This document shows positions 57,314-57,450 of a DNA stretch of 59,892 nt, in pieces. Positions within the stretch are counted from its first letter, which is position 1; each line of letters opens with the position of its first letter. The notes beneath the pieces are model-generated. The model worked only from the letters and a program-made list of their open reading frames with translations. It searched no databases and had not been told where the DNA came from. Position numbers and translations under genes: made by a program. Source of the stretch: a virus (taxonomy: Duplodnaviria > Caudoviricetes); IMG/VR virus record IMGVR_UViG_3300021085_000033, positions 1 through 59,892 of that record. The stretch is one strand, 5' to 3'.

Positions 57314-57450
57314 AATTAAATCAGTCTGATGAGGCTAGGTCATTCACCTAGCTGTACCTACGGGTACGACCCCTGAGATGGGGCGAAACCACGTGATACG
57401 GGAAGCGTATTGGCTACGGCACTTCGGTGCTTGGTCACTGATAACTAATT
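57314..57450 (+). ncRNA. Branched type I hammerhead ribozyme (HH2)
   Basis: Stem I ATCAGT/ACTGAT; CTGATGA-G...C-GAAA core; three hairpins inserted in stem II; stem III CCA/TGG enclosing two hairpins; GTC triplet (cut after 57436). Confidence 0.82.

Follow-up and report, generated by a model that had tools for sequence, protein, structure and literature searches.

A predicted, structurally expanded type I hammerhead ribozyme in a marine tailed phage, followed by an array of target-like cassettes

Hammerheads are the best-studied small ribozymes. In the portions of Perreault et al. (2011; PMC3088659) available to us, genes in prophages are described as flanked by hammerheads, which may divide long transcripts into mRNAs of gene length; stems II as short as one base pair are on record and weak stems III are common. 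A 2019 review, in its accessible text, treats the role of bacterial and phage hammerheads as unsettled and says that a natural trans-cleaving small ribozyme had not been established and examples were still being sought (PMC6765202). The present analysis concerns positions 57320-57442 on the plus strand of IMG/VR record IMGVR_UViG_3300021085_000033, a complete-looking tailed-phage record whose 59,892 bases were analysed as a whole and are called the window here. Judging from the sequence and its homologues, this element is very likely a genuine, structurally expanded type I hammerhead in an early plus-strand transcript of a marine tailed phage. It shares with the phage and prophage type I hammerheads of Perreault et al. 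the core, the open stem I, the position at small genes and the proposed role, but differs from those covered in the available text in its three hairpins in stem II, its two hairpins and linker in stem III and a probable brace. Our literature search returned no hammerhead in which stem II or III is branched or a loop-loop brace links those domains; the supplementary variant figures S6-S8 of PMC3088659 lay outside its coverage.

The core words CUGAUGA, GAAA and GUC and all the helices named in a preliminary description of the locus were found where it had placed them, correct to the base. Stem I is formed by AUCAGU (57320-57325, 5' strand) and ACUGAU (57437-57442, 3' strand); its 5' strand is followed by the core strand CUGAUGA (C3-A9, 57326-57332). 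The stem II domain (57333-57384) is closed by G57333-C57384 (pair 10.1-11.1) around three hairpins: H1 (GCUAGGU/ACCUAGC, 57334-57352), H2 (GUACC-UACG-GGUAC, 57354-57367) and H3 (CCCC-UGAGAU-GGGG, 57370-57383), the last of which abuts C11.1. After the core strand GAAA (G12, A13, A14 and A15.1; 57385-57388), stem III's 5' strand (ACCA, 57388-57391) pairs with UGGU at 57432-57435 through A57388-U57435 and CCA/UGG. Inside stem III lie hairpin A (AUACG-GGAAG-CGUAU, 57396-57410), an unpaired, single-stranded linker (57411-57418; variable, 8-14 nt in homologues) and hairpin B (GCAC-UUCG-GUGC, 57419-57430), which is also the hairpin of the cis cassette discussed below. The 3' strand of stem III together with C57436 at N17 (57432-57436) carries the cleavage triplet GUC, and the cut is predicted between C57436 and A57437. 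The 3' strand of stem I would then open the leader of the downstream mRNA, which continues as an A/U-rich stretch up to the start of the next small gene (57443-57461; ATG at 57453 and an in-frame ATG at 57459). The hammerhead core (C3-A9, G12-A14 and an N17 other than G) is thus accompanied by three helices with G10.1-C11.1 and A15.1-U16.1 as closing pairs and a stem I of 6 base pairs (bp).

Stem II had been taken for a single pair closing three hairpins. The closing pair stands, but the domain makes more sense as a helix of 5 bp interrupted by two hairpins: G10.1-C11.1 is probably stacked on CCCC/GGGG under a 6-nt UGAGAU loop, and H1 and H2 interrupt the 5' strand. H3 is probably the true stem II because its 3' strand runs directly into C11.1. 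The window element has a four-way junction in stem II, which encloses 52 nt, and a three-way junction in stem III, whose insertion measures 40 nt here and 40-55 nt across the family. Stem I is open. In the homologue types represented by L122, L124 and L147 it continues through a bulge of 2-3 nt into a further helix of 6 bp (UAAGUU/AACUUA). The most that the window could form there is a weak AAUUA/UAAUU helix, and in the L121 type no such helix was seen. In extended type I hammerheads a stem I bulge meets loop II, a geometry to which the layout of the L122, L124 and L147 types may correspond.

The hammerhead match exceeds chance. Our motif scan, which required the core, the closing pair, a stem III of 4 bp or more, UH, a stem I of 6 bp or more and domains no longer than 80 nt, gave two matches on the plus strand of the window (this element and 55598-55649) and none on the minus strand, while 200 dinucleotide shuffles gave a mean of 0.015 matches, with any match in only 3 of the 200. 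RNAfold recovered stem I and all five hairpins at -49.6 kcal/mol (z = -3.16), and none of 200 shuffles folded as well. The 333-nt spacer that holds the element (57120-57452) has no open reading frame (ORF) of at least 30 amino acids (aa) on either strand.

Homologues were collected in several ways. With the neighbouring 120-aa protein as query against IMG/VR, five loci were retrieved, and the element was present in all five contigs. Sequence-pattern scans gave 7 IMG/VR contigs and 77 metagenome loci. The full-length homologues, all on related marine phage contigs, amounted to 48 loci (window included) and 23 distinct sequences, to which a covariance model built from them (R1) added one divergent copy in locus L202, bringing the set to 24. 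L202 has two complete ribozyme modules, the second after two cassettes. Conservation of the core, on which the preliminary description had staked its identification, was found throughout: CUGAUGA and GAAA, and indeed all catalytic core bases, are intact in 24 of 24 sequences, including six that lay outside the full-pattern selection (four distinct protein-anchored ones, L127, first found with a search motif that lacks CTGATGAG, and copy 1 of L202).

In the model-fitted alignment A3, to which the loop-loop pairs described below were added, 99.5% of 951 cells held standard pairs, compared with 85.3% in shuffles, and this fraction was equalled by none of 500 shuffles. Changes on both sides occurred in 21 of 41 pairs. 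When the partners were slid by 1-3 columns as a control, 33-43% of the cells were paired and only 0-4 pairs had both-side changes. Compensatory changes were seen in all five hairpins, bearing out the claim that G57333-C57384 closes three hairpins and that stem III holds two. For example, both-side changes affected 5 of 6 pairs in H1 and 5 of 5 in H2, and one of the four pairs in H3 (CCCC/GGGG to CUCC/GGAG in L202 copy 1), with 100% of the cells paired in each of the three. The stem of hairpin A covaried in 4 of 5 pairs and hairpin B in 4 of 7 model pairs, the latter ranging from 4 to 9 bp in length among homologues. The UGAGAU loop is invariant save for UGAAAU in L202 copy 1, and hence no covariation signal is obtainable from it.

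A contact between the loops of H1 and hairpin A is suggested by the same alignment. The putative pairs U57343-A57404, U57344-A57403 and C57345-G57402 are standard in 24 of 24 sequences (U-A in 24; C-G in 18 and U-A in 6; C-G in 11, U-G in 8 and U-A in 5, respectively), and two of the three covary. In an all-versus-all test of 1094 unpaired column pairs, 12 reached 95% pairing with both-side change, and the H1-hairpin A contact was the only stacked run among those tested. This three-base contact would brace the enzyme half of the molecule. The earlier suggestion that the extra domains serve tertiary docking therefore gains some support, tempered by the small number of evolutionary events behind it: the loop-loop changes trace to about 2-3 events, and several of the 12 column pairs are plainly phylogenetic artefacts. 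Of the other functions proposed at the time, substrate capture fits the repeated target-like sites downstream, and for regulation by a ligand or protein no evidence was found.

Further observations weigh against the identification as a hammerhead. The pattern scans demanded CTGATGAG, TGAGAT and CGAAAC, and the invariance of those words was thus imposed for 18 of the 24 sequences. The junction pairs (stem I, 10.1-11.1 and three of the four pairs of stem III) show no covariation: the six pairs of stem I are standard in 24 of 24 and invariant apart from position 4, which is A in 19 (A-U) and G in 5 (G-U); the closing pair 10.1-11.1 is invariant in 24 of 24; and in stem III A-U, C-G and C-G are invariant, the fourth pair being A-U in 19 and A-C in 5. 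Because these pairs never vary, the support for the defining junction of a hammerhead comes from conservation and complementarity and not from covariation. Moreover, the covariation counts overstate the number of independent events, given the model-fitted alignment and the relatedness of its sequences. Of the 24 distinct homologues, 17 have U at N17 and 7 have C; U at this position is allowed but uncommon in natural hammerheads. Forcing the closing pair and a 3-bp stem III costs 5.4-10.3 kcal/mol over the minimum free energy (MFE) in all 24 sequences (ViennaRNA); this objection is weak, since nearest-neighbour models do not score the tertiary contacts of the hammerhead core. Finally, Rfam cmscan at 57320-57442 reported no hammerhead family (clan CL00010), even at E <= 10. 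That standard searches would likely miss the element had been foreseen; the covariance models miss it because of the 52-nt and 40-nt insertions, and the failure is a limit of the models, not a class-defining feature.

A competing helix has also to be considered. The 3' end of the linker can pair with the 3' strand of stem III as an alternative extension of hairpin B; this extension overlaps stem III and covaries, and it too speaks against the hammerhead fold. Base 16.4 is U in 19 sequences and C in 5, and the pair that extends hairpin B (alignment columns 109-140) is AU in 12 and GC in 5. Since C at 16.4 does not pair with A15.4 but pairs with a linker G, the cis site amounts to a hairpin abutting GGU that is tied to hairpin A by the linker.

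The three-hairpin stem II is not restricted to this phage group. A type III hammerhead with the same plan was found in four metagenome loci (L153, L172, L174 and L190) and in two genomes of gut Clostridia, one a Ruminococcus sp. metagenome-assembled genome (L294) and the other a Lachnospiraceae bacterium isolate (L313). Like the window element, it has G10.1, H1, H2 and (Y)CCC-UGAGAU-GGG(G) abutting C11.1 and GAAAC. It differs in being circularly permuted, with stem I closed by a loop of 3-4 nt and an open, unbranched stem III, and lacks hairpin A and hence the H1-hairpin A contact. Its host range is different as well; a conserved small gene with a Shine-Dalgarno sequence lies downstream, and no cassette array was seen. 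RNAfold folds this type III element as a hammerhead unaided, and Rfam Hammerhead_3 scored it at 37.5 and 31.9 bits, below the gathering threshold of 48.5, with a stem II insertion of 45-46 nt. Because the type III family is unrelated and has the same plan, the branched stem II is a recurring module rather than a quirk of one phage. The window element adds a structural subclass of hammerhead, with a stem II module common to type I and to the type III family, and current hammerhead censuses are incomplete because the covariance models miss this subclass.

In the mechanism that we propose, the RNA would fold into the usual three-helix hammerhead junction and cut itself between C57436 and A57437. 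The downstream product would be the mRNA of the small gene with a 5'-OH and an A/U-rich leader of 16-22 nt, and the upstream product would end in hairpin B and UUGGUC with a 2',3'-cyclic phosphate. Two further ribozymes lie upstream on the plus strand. A small canonical type I hammerhead at 55599-55648 (Rfam Hammerhead_1, 29.7 bits, E = 3.4e-4, below the gathering threshold of 34) follows directly after a stop codon, has a GUC site and a stem I of 6-7 bp, and is also present in L121, L124 and L125. A pistol ribozyme at 56363-56427 (Rfam Pistol, 54.9 bits) sits between two small genes, and L124 carries one at 775-839 (70.6 bits). The array therefore contains three ribozymes of two classes, which together may form an RNA-based system for processing the polycistronic early transcript of the phage. 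The small hammerhead resembles the window element in strand, array and core, and in placing the 3' strand of stem I in a conserved mRNA leader, but it is 50 nt long with simple 4-5 bp stems. It also has no repeated target-like sites; look-alike spacers have G at U16.1 and N17.

The small plus-strand genes of this array run from about 55400 to the end of the window, with structured RNA in nearly every spacer and an A/U-rich leader, without a Shine-Dalgarno sequence, before each gene. Elsewhere in the window the minus strand encodes terminase, portal and tail fibres, and the plus strand primase/helicase, an Erf-like protein and an exonuclease. Long hairpins at about 55955-56015 and 56665-56715 (plus strand), each followed by GGUGG-UAUAACUAAUU, occupy the position that ribozymes take in other spacers. 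By eye, these two spacers cannot be sites of the small hammerhead because G-G precedes UAUAAC. A 7.4-kb contig of a related phage (run X1, record 1) matches the spacers over 55400-58653 with other or extra genes between them, and matches the ribozyme module 57175-57444 with 6 differences. On this comparison the conserved spacers mark gene-replacement boundaries.

The element stands after a leader and ahead of the first of a run of identical cassettes. In the leader, a conserved hairpin with a covarying stem (57278-57293, plus strand) is followed by a boxA-like GCGUUCUUUGACA (57294-57306, plus strand), 13 nt before stem I. A covarying hairpin followed by CGUUCUUUGACAUU or close variants, at least 13 nt before stem I, recurs in all 28 distinct flank contexts. 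The likeness of this pair to boxB/boxA (nut-like) sites may be a lead. The boxA of reference is the E. coli consensus. The host of the phage may be a marine Bacteroidota, and the 16S leaders of two Draconibacterium genomes have GTTCTTTAAAA about 105 nt before the 16S start. Eleven exact matches to GTTCTTTGACA in three of the four Bacteroidota genomes searched fell in seemingly coding regions, none near rRNA genes. A promoter built on TTGACA upstream of the ribozyme was considered and set aside; by eye, the nearest -10-like box is at 9 nt in the window and at 15 nt in L122. The roughly 200 nt before the ribozyme (57120-57319, plus strand) are conserved non-coding RNA with a strong fold (z = -3.26), and this module is duplicated together with the ribozyme in L202 (200-430 and 1400-1597). 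It includes a Y-shaped, tRNA-like element at about 57127-57173, which ARAGORN does not call a tRNA; that program finds none in the window.

Each cassette consists of a hairpin and GGU-H-ACUGAU, a 10-mer matching the part of the ribozyme that runs from the 3' strand of stem III through N17 to the 3' strand of stem I. Four typical copies follow the ribozyme in the window, all on its strand, each preceded by a G+C-rich hairpin and followed by a start codon 16-25 nt away: 57585-57621 (GAGGGG-N8-CCCCUC abutting GGUU-ACUGAU at 57612-57621), 57994-58020 (GCUAGAC-UAG-GUCUAGC; 10-mer GGUU-ACUGAU at 58011-58020), 58639-58671 (GGUU-ACUGAU at 58662-58671, again abutted by a hairpin) and 59101-59126 (GCAAG-N6-CUUGC; GGUU-ACUGAU at 59117-59126). 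An atypical fifth copy, GGUUACUGAU (59832-59841, plus strand), has no adjacent hairpin or leader and is repeated at 71-80 in the terminal repeat. As many as 14 cassettes occur in relatives (L122), all on the ribozyme's strand just before start codons, and the ribozyme lies upstream of the first cassette in all loci but L202. Of 159 non-redundant distal sites, chosen with at most one mismatch, 143 have T at N17, 14 have C, 2 have A and none has G. The other nine positions of the 10-mer show 0-7 changes each, the 7 falling at the outermost stem I pair, which comes second to N17 in tolerance; a rare C-to-U change within ACUGAU retains a G-U pair. The hairpin abuts GGU with a gap of 0 nt in 132 of 156 sites, and a leader consensus, AACUUAAA, is conserved after the 10-mer at the 159 sites (1.0-1.8 bits). 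In IMG/VR, loci with at least two cassette matches comprise six contigs, all with the hammerhead and all of one phage group.

What cuts at the cassettes, if anything does, is a separate question from the identity of the ribozyme. Early T7 mRNA is cut by RNase III, and T4-type phages have promoter/stem-loop cassettes; these systems offer parallels for a hairpin in each spacer, a protective 3' hairpin and shuffling boundaries. They use a protein nuclease or promoters, whereas here the only identified agent for cutting the 10-mer is RNA. The rodent Clec2 hammerhead of Martick and colleagues (2008) reportedly has one substrate strand, no array and no peripheral hairpins, and sits in a eukaryotic 3' untranslated region (3' UTR). 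In that 3' UTR the enzyme and substrate strands lie hundreds of nucleotides apart on one transcript, as cited in the accessible text of PMC6765202. The Varkud satellite ribozyme, as treated in the available part of PMC4138328, is likewise natural and recognises a hairpin substrate domain by a loop-loop contact, but its fold and core are unrelated, and its kissing loop binds the substrate, whereas the contact suggested here lies within the enzyme half. In the sources covered by our literature search, some of them accessible only in part, no trans-cleaving hammerhead of a phage and no natural small ribozyme with multiple sites is described.

The explanation of the cassettes that survives best, to which we give about an even chance, is that they are an independent signal of which the hammerhead uses the nearest copy as its 3' half, the distal ones never being cut by RNA. 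They might then be a site for a host or phage endoribonuclease, a 3'-protecting hairpin combined with a translation leader, or a recombination boundary for small genes. The last role would liken them to the promoter/stem-loop cassettes of T4-type phages. Such a signal would account for a leader conserved beyond the ribozyme's arms, and for the two ribozymes in the single array of L202. The other spacers of the array, which use the small hammerhead, the pistol or long hairpins with G before UAUAAC, also agree with it, and the X1 contig, with its spacers kept and other genes between, is as expected of recombination boundaries. However, it leaves unexplained why the sole degenerate position of the 10-mer is the unpaired N17, with G in none of 159 sites, and it gives no reason for the hairpin to abut GGU; furthermore, no sequence-specific RNase was recognised among the ORFs scanned.

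The main competitor of this explanation goes further, extending the hammerhead identification without excluding it, and we hold it to be possible but rather unlikely: the segment 57320-57410, from the 5' strand of stem I through the core, the stem II domain and ACC to hairpin A, would be a pre-organised enzyme that cuts its own site and also every downstream cassette, releasing single-gene mRNAs. From each cassette would come GGU as the 3' strand of stem III, N17, and the 3' strand of stem I, and the cassette's hairpin would stack on the stem III of 3 bp. Once the first cut is made, the resident UGGU(C/U) tail would fold into the extended hairpin B and free ACC. The enzyme fragment might stay near the RNA polymerase through the boxA-like leader and recognise each cassette as it emerges by 3 + 6 (to 12) base pairs, while the extra hairpins and the brace would hold the enzyme half in shape without a covalent substrate strand. 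One long early transcript would in this way yield 5-15 monocistronic mRNAs that share a uniform 5'-OH leader and are each protected by a hairpin at the 3' end. Should the cassettes be genuine targets, the element would be the first small ribozyme in nature that acts on multiple sites, and it could serve as a compact natural design for multiplexed RNA processing.

Several features of the cassettes agree with such an enzyme. Their number, strand and position before start codons, in the window and in relatives, are as it would need, and the nine bases that would be paired are nearly fixed while the unpaired N17 varies without ever being G, which is the NUH rule; the tolerance of the outermost stem I pair and the retention of a G-U pair point the same way. 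The zero gap between hairpin and GGU matches the cis site, which is built alike, with 16.4 pairing into the hairpin rather than with A15.4 and with a variable, unpaired linker before hairpin B that is tether-like. The energy of the arm duplex is the same for the cis and the distal sites (-5.8 kcal/mol, or -9.2 with the extension). A cofold of the cleaved enzyme with the first cassette has ACC-GGU and stem I paired and the resident tail sequestered by fold-back, at -73.0 kcal/mol compared with -67.1 for the two RNAs apart. All six IMG/VR contigs with at least two cassettes carry the hammerhead. A phage RNA polymerase was looked for with PHROGs and Pfam in 23 of the window's ORFs and not found, and a two-box promoter role for the cassette was set aside, since the cassette starts about 28 nt before the ATG and its distance of 16-25 nt from the start codon would be too close. 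A tether model for boxA-bound RNA has been proposed for rRNA operons, in the text of PMC10250234 available to us.

Against an enzyme with many sites, the arms and the distal sites show no covariation. All are invariant within one phage group, which makes the co-occurrence of ribozyme and cassettes phylogenetically trivial. In relatives whose terminase identity is 67-69%, the 10-kb upstream flank contains no ribozyme and no repeated 10-mer, and these relatives therefore provide no outgroup in which arms and cassettes could covary. Conservation extends 8 nt past the pairing region, where only some ribozyme types are complementary, a sign that the cassette is under some other constraint as well. 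The resident intramolecular tail should cause product inhibition, a contact of 6 + 3 bp at -5.8 kcal/mol is weak for free trans action, the second full ribozyme of L202 would be needless two cassettes after the first if one enzyme sufficed, and the fifth site of the window (59832) has no hairpin. Nor has a natural trans-cleaving small ribozyme been established, as far as the accessible part of PMC6765202 goes. In the metatranscriptome-labelled runs X2, X3 and X5, no listed short contig crosses a cassette; with their thin cover and differing gene content they are uninformative either way.

The weakest alternative is that the fold is hammerhead-like but non-cleaving or controlled, an alternative helix inactivating a leader RNA that would act, for example, with the boxA-like site; the covarying extension of hairpin B that overlaps stem III, the hammerhead fold lying 5-10 kcal/mol above the MFE and U17 in 17 of 24 sequences would suit it, but a decayed ribozyme would be expected to lose some of the core bases that are intact in 24 of 24, and the neighbouring spacers hold other self-cleaving ribozymes, so that we consider it improbable. 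With a self-cleaving type I hammerhead as the preferred reading, the window and its relatives offer a candidate system for ribozyme-driven processing of a polycistronic phage transcript, with three ribozymes of two classes in one array.

Wider searches delimit the family. A terminase-anchored search gave 80 loci, and a covariance-model scan over 79 of them (L210-L288), L127 having been scanned separately, produced one real match, L221, which is the same contig as L125. A blastn search of 56000-58200 against INPHARED phages gave no match, and scanning IMG/VR with patterns for variants with a UGAAAU loop, or for H3 without the other elements, returned nothing new. The pattern scan of genome contigs gave 34 loci, of which two were hammerheads, both of the type III family, and the others coding look-alikes; it revealed no prophage copy of the window's hammerhead family and no clue to the host. 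None of the 119 loci from a 15-mer scan of IMG/VR was homologous to the element. The by-catch of that scan includes a sequence starting CTGATGAGGCTAGGTTTCCCTAGCC, near-identical in well over 60 viral contigs and without the GAAA core.

Some observations on the rest of the window may be added. A 2707-aa ORF (10673-18796, minus strand) has no Pfam, PHROG or PDB sequence match, and weak protein-atlas leads (best 0.89) point to clusters of phage 'polyvalent protein' (LPD-domain) type. A histidine-kinase-like ORF with PAS and HATPase_c domains (Pfam) lies at 32204-33430 on the minus strand, within the virion gene block. The same 82 bases around GGTTACTGAT occur at 37-118 and 59798-59879, and this identity at both ends suggests a terminal direct repeat and a complete genome.

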